A stretch of DNA of 64,000 nt from Candidatus Heimdallarchaeota archaeon (GTDB lineage: Archaea > Asgardarchaeota > Heimdallarchaeia > JABLTI01). Numbering within the stretch: position 1 is the first letter of the stretch; each line of letters starts with the position of its first letter. The DNA is taken from assembly GCA_030614005.1 (NCBI GenBank), contig JAUWKS010000003.1:1354-65353 (forward strand). Direction: 5' to 3'. The translations under genes and the position numbers were made by a program. This document shows positions 27,905 to 33,513 of this stretch, piece after piece. Under the pieces are notes generated by a model. It saw nothing but the letters and a program-made list of their open reading frames with translations, did no database searches and had not been told where the DNA came from.

Positions 27905-30025
27905 ATGTTCAAGCCAAAAAGTATAGCCGTTATCGGAGCCTCCGCAAAACCAGGGAAAATAGGTTATGAAATAATGGATAATATTCTCTCCTATGGTTAT
28001 AAAGGAGAACTGTATCCGATCAATCTAAAAGAAACAGAGATTTTAGGTAAAAAATGCTATAAAGCAATAGCAGACGTACCTGGTGAAATTGATTTTGTTA
28101 TAATCTCTATTCCAGCAAAATATGTTCCTGCTGTTTTCGAAGACTGTGGTAAAAAAGGTGTGAAATCTGCAGCAATAATTACAAGTGGTTTCGGTGAGGT
28201 TGGAGATCATGAAACTGAAAATCGTCTTGTTGAAATTGCTGAAAAGTATAATATGCCATTTATTGGTCCTAACATTTTTGGTATAGTATACGCTCCAGCA
28301 AATATCAATGCATCATTTGGTCCTGCAGATGTAAAACCAGGTAAATTGGCTTTCATTACGCAGAGCGGAGCATTAGGTATTGCACTTATGGGTTGGACAA
28401 TTACAAATAAAATTGGTCTCTCATCAATCATTAGCATTGGAAACAAAGCTCAAATTGGTGAAAGTGAACTTCTGGAGAGCTTTTTGAAAGATGATCCAAA
28501 TACAAAAGCAATTTTGCTATATGTTGAAGGTTTAATTGATGGCAGACAATCAATGAAAACATTCAAAGAAGTTGGCTTGAAGAAACCAATTATAGCATTA
28601 AAATCCGGACGATCAAAACGAGGAGCAGCTGCTGCTGCAAGTCACACAGGAAGTTTAGCTGGTGCAGATAACATTTATTCTGCAGCATTCAAACAATGTG
28701 GTGTTCTCAGAGCGATAGATGCTTCTGAAGCTTTTGACTGGGCCCGATGTATTACGAATAATCCTCGACCTAAAGGAAAGAATGTTGTTATCATTACTAA
28801 TGGTGGTGGAGTAGGCGTAATGGCAACTGATGCATGTGAGGACAATGATTTAGAACTTTACAACGATCAGGAAAAACTCAAAGAATTATTCTTCAAAACA
28901 GAGATTATGCCACCTTTTGGGTCCACAAAGAATCCCGTAGACATCACTGGTGGTGGTGGAGAATTAGCTTACAAAAAAGCAATTGAAGCGGCTTTCAATG
29001 CTAAAGAAATTCATTCTATTGTTGTTCTTTATTGTCAAACCGCAACGACAAATCCAGATTTGTTGGCTGATTATATTATTGAAGTTGTAAAGAAAAACAA
29101 CAACAAAAAACCATTTGTTATAGCAAATATAGGTGGAGAAGCAGTAGAAACCATGATTGACAAACTAAATGAAAATGACCTCTCCGCGTACGACCTGCCC
29201 GAAAAAGCTATTTCTTCATTGAGTGCACTATACAGATGGTCTGATTTCATAGACAGACACGAAAAACAAGGGAAAACTAAACCACTAAAATTACCAATTC
29301 CACAGATCAAAGCAATCATTGACAATATCAGAAAGGAAGGCAGAATTCAAATGCTCGAACATGAATCCAAACAAATTTTCAAATTGATTGGTTTAAATGT
29401 TCCTCCCTTCGCACTAGCACAAACCGTTGACGAAGCACAAAAATTTGCTCAAGAGGTTGGGTATCCAGTTGTTATGAAGATTGTTTCTGAAGATATTATC
29501 CATAAAAGTGATGCCGGAGGAGTAGTAGTTGGACCAAAAAATGCTCGAGAAGTTGATGAAGCATTTAACAAGATTTTAACAAATGCCAAAAACTACAAAG
29601 CAGACGCAAATATTCGTGGTGTATTCATCTCCCAAATGGTACCAAAAGCAACAGAAGTCATTGTAGGTGTAACTCGAGATCCAACCTTTGGACCAGTAGT
29701 AATGTTTGGTTTAGGTGGTATCTTCGTAGAAATAATGAAAGATGTTGTCTTCAGAGTTGCTCCATTCCCAAAGGACGAAGCAAGACATATGATAGATGAA
29801 ATAAAAAGCAAACCAATGCTCTATGGAGCTAGAGGAACAAAACCCGCAGATATTGATGCTTTAGTAGAAACCATCTATATAATTAGTCAGCTAGTATCTC
29901 AAGTGGATGATATTAAAGAATTAGACATCAACCCACTCTTTGCACTAGAAAAAGGCGCAAGTGCTGTCGATGCTCGAATTACTTTAACAGAGAAAATCTA
30001 TCCAAATGACATTCAAACAAAATGA
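27905..30025 (+). CDS. Acetyl-CoA synthetase (ADP-forming), fused alpha-beta subunits
   Basis: N-terminal CoA-binding domain (KSIAVIGASAKPGKIGY), succinyl-CoA-synthetase-like ligase-CoA domain, C-terminal ATP-grasp; 706 aa, typical of fused ACD. Confidence 0.75.
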   Translation: MFKPKSIAVIGASAKPGKIGYEIMDNILSYGYKGELYPINLKETEILGKKCYKAIADVPGEIDFVIISIPAKYVPAVFEDCGKKGVKSAAIITSGFGEVGDHETENRLVEIAEKYNMPFIGPNIFGIVYAPANINASFGPADVKPGKLAFITQSGALGIALMGWTITNKIGLSSIISIGNKAQIGESELLESFLKDDPNTKAILLYVEGLIDGRQSMKTFKEVGLKKPIIALKSGRSKRGAAAAASHTGSLAGADNIYSAAFKQCGVLRAIDASEAFDWARCITNNPRPKGKNVVIITNGGGVGVMATDACEDNDLELYNDQEKLKELFFKTEIMPPFGSTKNPVDITGGGGELAYKKAIEAAFNAKEIHSIVVLYCQTATTNPDLLADYIIEVVKKNNNKKPFVIANIGGEAVETMIDKLNENDLSAYDLPEKAISSLSALYRWSDFIDRHEKQGKTKPLKLPIPQIKAIIDNIRKEGRIQMLEHESKQIFKLIGLNVPPFALAQTVDEAQKFAQEVGYPVVMKIVSEDIIHKSDAGGVVVGPKNAREVDEAFNKILTNAKNYKADANIRGVFISQMVPKATEVIVGVTRDPTFGPVVMFGLGGIFVEIMKDVVFRVAPFPKDEARHMIDEIKSKPMLYGARGTKPADIDALVETIYIISQLVSQVDDIKELDINPLFALEKGASAVDARITLTEKIYPNDIQTK

Positions 30026-30225
30026 GTGAATCGTTTTCACTCGTTCTTTTCTATTTTTCAAGTATAGAAAGCTTAATTTTGAGCAAATGGTAATGAGAAA
30101 TGAAAGTTGCAATTCTATGAGATGTTCGATAATTTTAATAATCGGTTTGAATTGAGCAATAGACGATAAATGAATGCTAGCAAAGGTGGGTCTCGAAAAT
30201 ATACAAATTCAGCTATCAAAGTGGG

Positions 30226-31380
30226 TTGTTTTTAGAATTTTCTAATAACCAGAAGGTAATGATTGATAGTAAGAATGTCAAAATACCACTAAAAGTAAAC
30301 GCAATTGTGACACATGCGCATTCAGATCACTTTGCAGCGATGAATTCGTATTCTCCAACATTTGCAACACAAGCAACAATTGATCTTTTCAACAATTTAA
30401 AGAAAACAAAAACACGAAGTAATTTTATCCCAGTAGAATTTAATGAACAATTAAAACTACAACCTGACACACCAGATGTGAAAATTTCTTTCATACCGTC
30501 GGGACATATTCTTGGATCTGCATCTGTAATCGTTGAAAATGATAATAGCAGATTACTATTCTCAGGAGATGTAGGAGGGAAGGGACAATTAACTTCATTA
30601 GCACCACTGAAAGCTGTTCAAGCAGATATTCTGGTTGTAGAAGCAACGTTTGGTTCTCCGGAATTAGTTTTCCCATCTCGAGAAGAAATTTCAATGGACA
30701 TATTGAAATGGTCGGCAAATGTCATAAAAGAAAATAAGAACGTGCTATTTTCTGCAGGAAGATTAGGCTCCTCACAAGAATTGATTAAATTATTTAATAA
30801 CCTGACAAATCTAAATGTCGTAACGCATGGAGAAGTAACTCAGCTATCTGAAATCTATCAAAAACATGGAGTAAAACTGGCTTTCCACGATTCAAAATCA
30901 GAGGAAGGAAAGGAAATACTAAGAAACGGAGAGGCAATAATTATTCAACCTCGAGGGAAAAAAATCGTTCCGTATTTTATAACAGAACATGTGGAGTGTA
31001 AAACTGCAATAGTAACAGGAATGGCTACAAGATTTCAATACAGAAATTACGACGCATCATTTCCGTTGTCTTCGCATGCGAACTTTAACGAATTAATAGA
31101 CTATATAAGAGAAGTATCGCCAGAATTGGTTTTCACAATATATGGTCTCGAGAAAAAACTCGCAGAAGCAATATCAAGAGAGTTAGATATTCCAGCAATT
31201 CCGCTAAAAGATAAAACACCGAATGCAATACAAAAAACAAGTGAAAAAATTGCTGCGGAACAAAATATACGAAAAAACCTAGAAAGGGAAAAAATACCCC
31301 TTAAGAAAATTGAGAGCAAAGTTGTTTCCAAAGAAAAGAAAGAAATAACCTTAGATGATTTTTTCAAACAAGATGACTAG
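30226..31380 (+). CDS. Metallo-beta-lactamase-fold hydrolase of the beta-CASP family (RNase J / aCPSF2-like, no KH domains)
   Basis: HxHxDH (THAHSDH), PSGH, FSGDVG, VVEATFG (like the ExTYG motif) and C-terminal SSHAN (beta-CASP motif C). TTG start; HxHxDH is unusually close to the N-terminus. Confidence 0.55.
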   Translation: MFLEFSNNQKVMIDSKNVKIPLKVNAIVTHAHSDHFAAMNSYSPTFATQATIDLFNNLKKTKTRSNFIPVEFNEQLKLQPDTPDVKISFIPSGHILGSASVIVENDNSRLLFSGDVGGKGQLTSLAPLKAVQADILVVEATFGSPELVFPSREEISMDILKWSANVIKENKNVLFSAGRLGSSQELIKLFNNLTNLNVVTHGEVTQLSEIYQKHGVKLAFHDSKSEEGKEILRNGEAIIIQPRGKKIVPYFITEHVECKTAIVTGMATRFQYRNYDASFPLSSHANFNELIDYIREVSPELVFTIYGLEKKLAEAISRELDIPAIPLKDKTPNAIQKTSEKIAAEQNIRKNLEREKIPLKKIESKVVSKEKKEITLDDFFKQDD

Positions 31381-31401
31381 TTTTAGTGGCGCTGATTAAA
31401 T

Positions 31402-31845
31402 ATGGCTAGAATTTTTAAAATAGCGTTATCAAAAATCCAACCAAGTCAGCTCTATATCAGTGAGAAAAAATTAGCAAGTATAAAGGAAAAAATAACCAAA
31501 AACGGAATAGATGAATTAGAACCAATCCCGATAAAAAAATTAGGTGAGGATATAATCTATACTGATGGGCATACTCGTGCTTTTCTTGCCTATCAAAATG
31601 GCGACAAAGAAATTGCTGTTGAATGGGACGAAGATGATTTAGATTGGGAAATGTATGAAATATGTGTTCAATGGTGTAAAGATGAAGCAATTTATACTAT
31701 TGCTGATTTGCAAAAGAGAATTGTTCCACATAAAAAATATGAAGTGGTTTGGTATAAGCGATGTGATACATTGCACGCGGAAATAGATCTGAAGAGAGCA
31801 CAAAAAAAACAAAAACGAATAAAAACGACAAAAAAAAACTTATAA
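31402..31845 (+). CDS. ParB/Sulfiredoxin-superfamily (ParB-like nuclease domain) protein
   Basis: N-terminal I..IQPSQLYIS followed by YTDGHTRAFLAY ([DG]-G-x-x-R signature of the ParB/Srx fold); 21 nt downstream of the beta-CASP gene on the same strand. Confidence 0.4.
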   Translation: MARIFKIALSKIQPSQLYISEKKLASIKEKITKNGIDELEPIPIKKLGEDIIYTDGHTRAFLAYQNGDKEIAVEWDEDDLDWEMYEICVQWCKDEAIYTIADLQKRIVPHKKYEVVWYKRCDTLHAEIDLKRAQKKQKRIKTTKKNL

Positions 31846-31934
31846 CCTTTGAGAGCTTCTTTCTTTTAGTAAATTTAGTTTAATATCCGGGATATGTAAA
31901 TTTGCAAATTAAAAGAAAATTAATAGTTACAATA

Positions 31935-32895
31935 ATGTTACTTTGTTTTATAATTCCTCTATTTAGTTAAAATAGTATAACACCTCAACCAATGGTACAA
32001 AACGTTATCGGTGCATCATTGGAGTTAGAACAAAAGTGGAACTATACGACAAGTGGAATATCTGTAAGTGCAACACCAACACTGTTCGATTTATACGAAG
32101 ATGGAACAATGGACGTAATTTATGGAACTAATAAAGATGTGACTTGTCTTGATGACCAAGGAAATCTCAATTGGTCATATTACACTAATAGTGTAGTTAG
32201 GGGATCACTTGTTGTAGTTGACGTAGATAATGACTATAAACCAAACATTGTCGTTGGTGTTAGTGATAGTTTGCGATTTTTTGATTATGATGGTTCATAT
32301 ATGAGAAATACTGGAACTGGCTATATTATGGATGCCCCATCTATTGTTGATTTTGAAGGTGATGGAGAATGGGAATTCTTAGTACCAAGCTATCTATTCT
32401 ATGATGGTATTTACTGTATTAATAGTAATGGATCCATAAGATGGTCTTACACAGATATTTCATCACCTGGAACACCTGATAGAGTGTATGGTACTCCTAC
32501 TGCTTGTGATCTTAATGGAGATGGAGTAATTGAAGTTCTCTTTGGTTCATGGGATGGATATCTTTATTGTCTTAATGAAACTGGGCATTTCCAATGACAA
32601 TATTCTCGATGGAGAAGAAGTTATTGCTGGAGCAGATGGTTTTATTACCAATCCCAACAACGCGGATACCGATGGCGATGGTATCGATGATGACATAGAA
32701 ATTGGCAATGGCACCGATCCAACCGATTCTAGTGACCCACCCGTAGAGACTCCAACTCCTACCACCACTCCTACAAATACTACTCCTACAGGCGAAGGCT
32801 CATTCATTGGTGGTTTTGTTAGTTTAGGTATTGTTTTATCTACTGCCTTATTTATCATAGCTTCAGTAGAACGTCGAAAGAAATATTACAAATGA
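31935..32895 (+). pseudogene. Decayed paralog of the beta-propeller/TSP3 surface-protein family: in-frame stop near the N-terminus, +1 frameshift near 32580-32595, PGF-CTERM-like C-terminus
   Basis: ATG 31935 encodes hydrophobic MLLCFIIPLFS, then an in-frame TAA (31968-31970), then the ORF 31992..32597 (beta-propeller-like ...DGDGVIEVLFGSWDGYLYCLNETG). Frame 1 continues at 32530..32895 with TSP3 motifs (NADTDGDGIDDDIEIGNGTDPTD), a Thr/Pro linker, and GGF plus a hydrophobic helix plus ERRKK. Confidence 0.4.
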
Positions 32896-32985
32896 AAGAG
32901 AAGAATCTCTTTCCATTTTTTTCTTTTTATTAATCGGTTTTTCCGTACTCTCTATACTGTACTTTTACAATTTTGGTTTTGTGAG

Positions 32986-33513
32986 TTACTTTGATTTTGG
33001 ATCTCTTTTTTCCTTACCTTTATTTAAATCAATAACTTCTTCTTTTGTTTGAGTGATTGGTGATACATCTTGGAATCTTCGATTTGTTACAACATAAAGT
33101 TCAGCTATACCTTTTTCTGTGAAATTTTTAACCATGCGACCTGAATGATGACCAAAGGGCGCAGGATATTGAACATCTCGGAAAGTTAATCGATAATATG
33201 TTGCAAGATGTGCCCATTCATTAAGTTCATCAGGATGCTTGACAGATTTAGGAGCTGTTTCTGCTAAGCCAATCCAATCGTACCAAGCATGTGCATCTTC
33301 AGGGTCACCAGAGGCACGATCTGTACTTTGGTCCATAGTACTCCCGCTGTAATTTGCTGTGATTTTAATACATAACCATTTACCGACAAGTGCAATCACT
33401 CTGTCAGAAGTACATGGTCCATCTTCATCGAAAGCGGAACCCCATTCACTTTCCACATCCTTTACAAGTTTCTTAATTATGAATTTTTCTAGTTCTGAAA
33501 TATCAATAGGCAT
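32986..33513 (-). CDS. Hypothetical His/Trp-rich protein (175 aa), locally GC-rich, probably foreign
   Basis: Clean ATG ORF; GC is about 45-50% over 33240-33360 against about 32% in the neighbouring genes; no confident family assignment (HAWYDW, WAHLATYY, FGHHSGRM). Confidence 0.5.
   Translation of the reverse strand: MPIDISELEKFIIKKLVKDVESEWGSAFDEDGPCTSDRVIALVGKWLCIKITANYSGSTMDQSTDRASGDPEDAHAWYDWIGLAETAPKSVKHPDELNEWAHLATYYRLTFRDVQYPAPFGHHSGRMVKNFTEKGIAELYVVTNRRFQDVSPITQTKEEVIDLNKGKEKRDPKSK

Follow-up and report, generated by a model that had tools for sequence, protein, structure and literature searches.

The locus described here lies in a 64,000-nucleotide stretch (hereafter, the window) of contig JAUWKS010000003.1 from the Candidatus Heimdallarchaeota archaeon assembly GCA_030614005.1, and comprises two co-directional open reading frames (ORFs) on the plus strand, at positions 30226-31380 and 31402-31845, with 21 nt between them. 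The first encodes an MBL (metallo-beta-lactamase) nuclease of the beta-CASP type, of 384 amino acids (aa) when read from a TTG codon and probably of 393 aa, starting from an ATA codon at 30199. The second, which has an ATG start, encodes a 147-aa protein with the ParB/sulfiredoxin (Srx) fold. A first-pass annotation of the window, made from the sequence alone, had noted the 21-nt spacing, which we confirm, and had regarded the pairing as one that does not correspond to any described module; we found no description of it in the literature searched. Each of the two genes adds a new member or variant to a known superfamily.

The classification of the first gene product as a beta-CASP enzyme devoid of a KH domain, which goes back to the same annotation, is borne out by domain models, structure prediction, and invariant motifs. 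The protein matches the Pfam families RMMBL and Lactamase_B_2, and by far its best match among curated models is NCBIfam TIGR04122 (E-value 3e-43), with residues 25-327 aligned to positions 26-319 of a model of 326. At 147.8 bits, the match scores below the equivalog cut-off of 325 bits, and the identity is about 26%. Matches to aCPSF1 and to type VII Cas14, the latter being the best Protein Data Bank (PDB) hit by sequence, are partial only. The AlphaFold2 (AF2) model, with a predicted local distance difference test (pLDDT) score of 88.8, shows an MBL domain into which a beta-CASP domain is inserted, and the top 50 structures that Foldseek retrieves with this model are all beta-CASP nucleases, with E-values down to 5e-20.

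In an alignment of 43 homologs, MBL motifs 1-4 are present, represented by D14, H30xH32xD34H35, H94, and D115, each of which is either invariant or conserved to 90% or more; the HxHxDH metal-binding motif among them reads H30-A-H32-S-D34-H35 in the window protein and is encoded at 30313-30330 of the plus strand. The same alignment shows that E139 of motif A and H284 of motif C are invariant. Under the classical beta-CASP definition, motif C carries Val in SNM1 and Artemis, and the nuclease of the window has His at this site. The His of motif B, expected about 20 residues ahead of motif C, is absent: the aligned site reads T-G265-[W/M], and the stretch from E139 to H284 lacks any conserved His in the 43 homologs.

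The profile of the nuclease family is collinear with the 5'-3' DNA exonucleases SNM1A and Apollo (DCLRE1A/B) across the whole catalytic domain (profile positions 31-305, out of 344, pair with residues 28-316 of 343; E-values from 1e-24 to 1e-20), and the TM-score against Apollo, normalised to the target, is 0.72. The resemblance has its limits, with identity of 14-19% and no UBZ or other eukaryotic accessory regions in the nuclease. The profile also matches CPSF73 and aCPSF1 strongly, but mostly over the first 200 or so positions, and TTHA0252 is aligned over positions 19-192 only. Judging from these sequence matches, the nuclease, with its catalytic core of about 325 aa, is a member of a compact, SNM1/Apollo-sized beta-CASP family, the bacterial branch of which is known as the 'ligase-associated DNA damage response exonuclease'. 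We take TIGR04122 (Xnuc_lig_assoc) to be the 'Exo' component of the bacterial cluster that consists of Lhr-Core, MPE, an ATP-dependent ligase, and Exo. The likeness of the nuclease to this model extends to end-to-end alignment, the short N-terminus, the metal ligands, TG[WM]/SGW at motif B, and SxHA(D/N) at motif C; in addition to the low score and identity, it differs in that the archaeal proteins have a tail, described below, that the listed bacterial members lack. Neither an ATP-dependent ligase, nor an Lhr helicase, nor a PdeM phosphoesterase is found near the nuclease gene, whose neighbours encode L11, ADP-forming acetyl-CoA synthetase (ACS), DtdA, PfkB, and OTCase.

The first-pass annotation had asked whether the nuclease is an ortholog of aCPSF2 or a divergent paralog, and our comparisons indicate that it is not of the aCPSF2 type. 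The two share the KH-less MBL plus beta-CASP architecture, the motif C His, and the RMMBL match, but aCPSF2 denotes COG1236 proteins that average about 420 aa (Phung et al., PMC3553952), and the His of motif B (H380 in TTHA0252) has no counterpart in the nuclease. Orthology is rejected on the grounds of size, alignment coverage, and the best curated model, authentic aCPSF2 having been compared by description only. The shorter core fits better, we infer, with the three further archaeal beta-CASP clusters that the same study left uncharacterised (Phung et al., PMC3553952). HVO_2763 (PMC3296008) was considered as well and set aside as irrelevant, given that it is a tRNase Z/PhnP-like MBL protein.

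Beyond the catalytic core, the nuclease contains a flexible, K/E-rich linker of about 45 aa (approximately aa 332-372; 31219-31341, plus strand) that is poorly conserved, with a top-residue frequency of 0.27-0.35 versus 0.6-0.9 in the core and a length of 42-64 aa across the Heimdall-type clade. AF2 predicts one helix in the linker, followed by a segment of low confidence (pLDDT below 50 at aa 363-369). The C-terminal peptide, KEKKEITLDDFFKQDD, includes the sequence E-I-T-L-D-D-F-F (aa 373-380; 31342-31365, plus strand), which stops 4 residues short of the C-terminus. Among 37 sequences of the clade, the T, L, D, D, F, and F of this peptide are each conserved at 0.81-1.00 and are followed by one to five variable residues; a short helix is predicted by AF2 at aa 376-379. 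The peptide resembles the PCNA-interacting protein (PIP) box, the consensus of which is QxxLxxF (PMC7776575), at the hydrophobic and aromatic positions, with Q replaced, and it is predicted to be a PCNA-binding motif.

Canonical PIP boxes are found at the very end of distant archaeal homologs, which are 320-345 aa long and share 38% identity or less with the nuclease; examples are QKALSEFL, QQKLTDFV, QKTLSAFY, QTILDSYF, and QMRVDDFL. The strict pattern Qxx[LIMV]xx[FYW][FYWLIVM] occurs in the final 25 aa of 20 of the 72 distant homologs, compared with 2 of 615 background ORFs of at least 150 aa taken from the same loci. The motif is missing in most of the weakest-scoring homologs, including two that carry the name 'ligase-associated DNA damage response exonuclease'. 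A scan of the window for other PIP-bearing ORFs that could serve as a local reference yielded none. As a separate observation, three remote homologs of the nuclease (P0209, P0227, and P0229) end in QISLF, QMALFDD, and QMRLFED, respectively, and these termini resemble the bacterial beta-clamp motif, not the PIP box.

The gene for DP2, the large subunit of the DNA polymerase PolD, lies close to the nuclease homolog, in convergent orientation, in four of seven distant loci (L087, L089, L090, and L096), which belong to a Hermodarchaeal-labelled contig, a Caldarchaeum metagenome-assembled genome (MAG), and two further contigs; Alba is also nearby in three of these four loci, and in the other three of the seven, DP2 is not close by. 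A 94-aa ORF that follows the MBL homolog in L087 was inspected by eye as a potential relative of the small protein and rejected, being of low complexity and without evident likeness.

The combination of a variable linker, a near-invariant TLDDFF, and PIP boxes in distant homologs leads us to predict that the nuclease is tethered to PCNA and has a role in replication or repair. Human SNM1A is reportedly recruited to PCNA through a PIP box. No PIP-bearing archaeal beta-CASP enzyme is described in the literature that we searched, to which this absence is limited.

A role in RNA processing, one of the functions put forward in the first-pass annotation, is possible as such, but the conserved PIP-like peptide, which that annotation had missed, leads us to prefer DNA replication or repair. 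In its explicit form, this alternative holds that the nuclease is a 5'-3' exoribonuclease like aCPSF2 or TTHA0252 and that its conserved tail binds some other partner. The RMMBL match and H284 of motif C would suit such an enzyme, aCPSF1, CPSF73, and TTHA0252 obtain the lowest E-values both with Foldseek and with the profile, homologs bear the JGI label 'putative mRNA 3-end processing factor', and Alba, a protein that binds both RNA and DNA, adjoins distant homologs. However, most of the CPSF-type matches cover only the first part of the profile as detailed above, the beta-CASP insert corresponds in size to that of SNM1, the curated model that fits best over the full length is that of a DNA-damage-response exonuclease, the protein falls short of the average aCPSF2 length, and in many members of the family the C-terminal motif fits the PIP consensus. 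We consider an exoribonuclease of this kind unlikely.

The small protein (31402-31845, plus strand) consists of a ParB/Srx domain at approximately aa 1-78, a helical domain rich in Cys and Trp, and a basic C-terminal tail. Its assignment to the ParB/sulfiredoxin type in the first-pass annotation holds at the level of fold: the AF2 model (pLDDT 89.5), in which the ParB/Srx domain is followed by helices and then by a long basic C-terminal helix, retrieves with Foldseek the CTPase domains of ParB and Noc, Atu1540 (PDB 2HWJ), PadC, sulfiredoxin, SerK/SbnI, and 1VK1. Root-mean-square deviation is lowest, at 2.0-2.4 A, for SerK and SbnI, which are free serine kinases, and some family members carry the NCBI name 'ParB/Srx family N-terminal domain-containing protein'. 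At the sequence level, the small protein yields nothing at an E-value of 1 or lower against Pfam (including PF02195) and NCBIfam, it has no hit among PDB sequences, and its family profile finds nothing at 10 or lower among ParB, Srx, and SerK sequences of the PDB.

An alignment of 47 sequences shows a distinctive set of invariant residues, namely Q13-P-S-Q16, K23, P43, K45, D55-G-H-T-R59, L80-D-W82, Y85, C88, W91, C92, W117, and C121. The first of these motifs (31438-31449, plus strand) maps to the first strand and loop of the ParB/Srx domain, and DGHTR (31564-31578, plus strand), already singled out in the first-pass annotation, is in register with the phosphate-binding GxxR loop. This loop reads GERRxR in ParB and GCHR in Srx, and we presume, from general knowledge of the superfamily and the position in the fold, that DGHTR corresponds to it. 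Thus, the alpha/beta fold and the G-x-x-R loop are shared with other ParB/Srx-fold proteins, whereas the helical C-domain, in which three Cys are invariant, is the small protein's own. In the alignment and the AF2 model, C88, C92, C121, W91, and W117 all fall in this helical region (31663-31764, plus strand), and C88, C92, and C121 might possibly form a metal, iron-sulfur, or redox site. The small protein is not a canonical ParB DNA clamp, given that it is only 147 aa long and has neither a helix-turn-helix nor a dimerisation domain; no parA gene is present among the annotated neighbours of the small gene. Nor is it a sulfiredoxin, because the loop reads G-H-T-R and no Cys occurs there in any of the 47 sequences.

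The small-protein family is widely distributed. A word-indexed search returned 731 homologs, a genome scan located relatives in 272 species representatives, and an exhaustive search with a hidden Markov model gave 647 clusters at 50% identity. Its hosts include Asgard archaea, Bathyarchaeia, Thermoproteota, and Brockarchaeota and, on the bacterial side, for example Anaerolineae, Zixibacteria, and WOR-3. Of the 150 top representatives of the family, about a third are multidomain proteins (in the P0250-P0376 range). GNAT acetyltransferase domains, in either order, are present in at least 20 of the 49 long representatives, two of them AAC(6')-Ie-like. Single fusions are to nitroreductase, SAM methyltransferase, RrnaAD, NUDIX with a P-loop kinase, CinA, HD, cupin, Sel1, and LRR domains, and in one bacterial relative the fusion partner is a complete DNA polymerase IV. 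Fusion to an MBL domain was not found among the 49 multidomain relatives, and the cluster names of the fusion proteins are uninformative.

A survey of the ParB-CTPase fold, built on PF02195, describes binders of ATP, CTP, and GTP, including a GTP-specific fusion with an acetyltransferase (PMC12704722). Fusions of the latter kind are frequent among the relatives of the small protein, which itself stands alone in the window. In view of these NTP (nucleoside triphosphate) binders with the same fold, an NTP-binding enzyme or switch is favoured over a nuclease, and the fusions suggest that the domain is an NTP-binding accessory or kinase-like module. The small protein, which does not match PF02195, the base model of that survey, defines a widespread family of the ParB/Srx fold that has been overlooked by Pfam-based surveys.

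These features raise another possibility, namely, that the small protein is an enzyme, or a cofactor module, acting on small molecules or proteins, for example, a kinase similar to SerK or SbnI, and that its position next to the nuclease gene is incidental. The high frequency of fusions with GNAT and other enzyme domains, the structural proximity to SerK and SbnI, and GTP binding by a fusion of the ParB fold with an acetyltransferase (PMC12704722) all agree with this possibility. The similarity to the two kinases is undetectable at the sequence level, however, no substrate is indicated, and both the basic C-terminal tail and the fusion with DNA polymerase IV suit nucleic acid contexts. We regard this explanation as tenable though rather doubtful.

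Whether the two genes form a module was addressed through the neighbourhoods of their homologs. An MBL gene lies directly upstream of the small gene in 9 of 86 loci, with MBL identity of 53-92% in tblastn comparisons. Eight of the nine loci are distinct, out of approximately 76 distinct small-gene loci, and all belong to one Heimdall-type clade. The gap between the two genes in this clade is 17-32 nt, and the entire block L11-ACS-MBL-small-DtdA-PfkB-OTCase is syntenic, so that the adjacency represents a single evolutionary event. Among the loci compared, synteny of the small gene with the nuclease gene is kept in the Heimdall-type clade and not elsewhere, which does not support the two-component nuclease envisaged in the first-pass annotation as a general module.

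In 16 loci of the other large Asgard group, which comprises Loki, Hod, Hermod, and Odin lineages, it is the gene for a 176-aa YfcE-family phosphodiesterase that precedes the small gene, with a gap of 35-87 nt. There, a co-directional trio is observed, made up of a GIFT-like 307-aa protein, the YfcE phosphodiesterase, and, in the last position, the small protein, with a convergent gene for an Arf/Ras-like small GTPase downstream (loci L005, L008-L011, L013, L015, L017, L018, L020, L021, L025, L027, L028, and L031). The MBL family is also represented in Hermod- and Odin-labelled MAGs; in at least the Hermodarchaeal-labelled contig and one further contig, the MBL homolog is located between Alba and PolD DP2, apart from the small gene. 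No partner common to all small-gene loci emerged when one was sought: outside the two Asgard blocks, in Bathyarchaeia and bacteria, its neighbours are unrelated singletons, among them cupin, an OsmC-like protein, an ABC permease, PFOR-gamma, PPK2, and membrane proteins.

It is conceivable that the pair is nevertheless a true two-component system with a dedicated ParB/Srx partner that depends on NTP to gate, target, or load the nuclease; it would then be an innovation of this clade, serving the replication fork or repair. Both genes are co-directional and closely spaced in all eight distinct loci of the Heimdall-type clade, despite identity of only 53-60% between some of the MBL proteins. Both Asgard contexts place the small gene right after a gene for a metal-dependent phosphoesterase, which, together with the fusion to DNA polymerase IV and its hint at DNA transactions, is mildly suggestive. 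Against this speak the synteny of the seven-gene block, which makes the adjacency one inherited event; the Hermod- and Odin-labelled MAGs, which contain both families (the small gene after YfcE and, in the one Hermod-labelled MBL locus covered, the MBL gene by Alba and PolD); the lack of any fusion with MBL in the 49 multidomain relatives; and the unrelated neighbours elsewhere. We consider a system of this type improbable.

Participation in defence, likewise raised in the first-pass annotation, is rejected. An anti-virus system or mobile-element cargo in the form of a two-gene nuclease system would be in line with the occurrence of ParB/Srx domains and of MBL nucleases in some defence systems and with the similarity of the nuclease to type VII Cas14. 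Furthermore, a type III CRISPR locus and genes of the AAA_14/DUF4143 kind lie in the vicinity of the small gene in Thermofilum. However, neither protein matches any of the PADLOC models, no relatives were found in 2.9 million viral contigs, the neighbours are housekeeping genes of a stable, syntenic block, and the GC content of the window, about 33%, is unremarkable. We hold such a function to be very improbable indeed. In Thermofilum (L002-L004), the small gene occurs alone amid genes for AAA_14/DUF4143 ATPases, the toxin-antitoxin pair HicAB, and type III CRISPR-Cas (Cmr and Csx1), a setting that has the appearance of a variable region, unlike the Asgard contexts.

The overall reading that we propose is a lineage-specific two-gene unit, consisting of a PCNA-tethered beta-CASP nuclease and a ParB/Srx-fold protein that binds NTP, which is neither a general module nor a defence system, and we give this reading an even chance of being correct. 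According to this proposal, the tail EITLDDFF would dock on the PCNA sliding clamp and deliver the two-metal nuclease to ends or flaps of DNA where replication or repair takes place; there, by analogy, it would act as a 5'-to-3' exonuclease. The small protein would bind NTP through its DGHTR loop and function as an NTP-dependent enzyme or switch, not as a nuclease. The association of the two genes arose once, in the Heimdall-type clade only.

Several observations weigh against this proposal. With the motif B His missing, catalysis or 5'-phosphate recognition may differ from that of known members of the superfamily. The motif C His and the RMMBL match are both classically tied to RNA-specific beta-CASP enzymes, and the CPSF-type structures at the top of the Foldseek results likewise leave room for an RNA substrate. 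In the Heimdall-type clade, position 1 of the PIP-like peptide is E, K, A, or D, not Q, which makes it a non-canonical PIP box. Given that the small protein matches no ParB, Srx, or SerK model at the sequence level, NTP binding is deduced from the fold and one loop motif. Finally, the genes keep their short gap of 17-32 nt even where protein identity has dropped to 53-60%, and this would be consistent with a genuine functional link.

The evidence for the coupled module is thus weak, and the value of the locus resides mostly in two leads at the level of families, the PCNA tether and the ParB/Srx-fold family without a Pfam model. If the tail of the nuclease binds PCNA, a beta-CASP nuclease, of which we found no example in the literature searched, would join the archaeal sliding-clamp toolbelt, and eukaryotic SNM1A would have a parallel in archaea, which bears on how the replication and repair factors of eukaryotes originated in Asgard archaea. 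A more far-reaching possibility, that the nuclease is an unrecognised archaeal PCNA-tethered DNA nuclease of the SNM1/Apollo type that is gated by NTP at the fork through its ParB/Srx partner in Heimdall-type archaea, strikes us as quite improbable; if true, such an NTP-switched, clamp-bound nuclease would be the prokaryotic counterpart of the eukaryotic SNM1A-PCNA axis. As for the small-protein family, the recurrent GNAT fusions make it tractable for extending the picture of the ParB-CTPase fold as a general NTP module.

The start of the nuclease gene merits separate consideration. According to the first-pass annotation, the N-terminus looked shortened, with HxHxDH at about residue 30 and a TTG start. 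The motif is indeed near residue 30, but this is a family trait, shared with TIGR04122, and the TTG codon is probably a miscall. HxHxDH is located near residue 30 in SNM1, Apollo, and Artemis as well. Conservation at the peptide level, (I)YKFSYQSGLFLEF, extends 9 codons 5' of the TTG at 30226 (compare MKLSWNNGL... in P0169); an in-frame TAG is present at 30178, and no ATG, GTG, or TTG occurs between this TAG and the TTG. A Shine-Dalgarno-like AAGGTGG (30183-30189) precedes the candidate non-canonical ATA start (30199-30201), which lies 9 nt past it, so that the predicted initiation region spans 30183-30201 of the plus strand. This arrangement is conserved, with GGTG-N6-9-ATA TAC AAA TTC repeated in six related loci (L007, L012, L014, L019, L032, and L041), in three of which (L012, L014, and L019) there is a stop just 2 codons 5' of the ATA. 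The GTG within GGTG is in frame in other relatives (MGKTIYKF...) and out of frame in the window. The nuclease may thus start at a conserved AUA; alternatively, this lineage may have a 1-nt indel, or an error in its assembly, with a frameshifted GTG at 30186 as the candidate start. Public gene calls for the Heimdall-type clade place the start at four different positions.

The sequences that flank the pair are consistent with a transcription unit of its own. The ACS gene lies directly upstream of the nuclease gene, and an inverted-repeat scan located, at 30016-30062 of the plus strand, a hairpin (AACAAAATGAGTGAA / TTCACTCGTTCTTTT) followed by a T-rich run, which overlaps the ACS stop and is a putative terminator; the MBL gene therefore probably begins a new transcript. 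A T-rich tract, TTCTTTCTTTT, is situated at 31857-31867 of the plus strand, 12 nt past the stop of the small gene, and resembles an archaeal terminator. With the hairpin and T-run before the pair and this tract after it, the pair looks like its own two-gene transcription unit, and the two genes are probably co-transcribed here. A search of positions 29000-33000 against Rfam matched no family. PHROGs gave no meaningful match.

The nearest public relative of the window, the Heimdallarchaeota MAG GCA_018238155.1, has an identical gene order. About 1.1 kb, at 31992-32895 of the window, is missing from the closest genome (L001). This segment encodes a 201-aa FG-GAP/beta-propeller fragment and, in another, overlapping frame, a 121-aa ORF with TSP3 repeats and a transmembrane region, and has the appearance of a small surface-protein gene broken by a frameshift.

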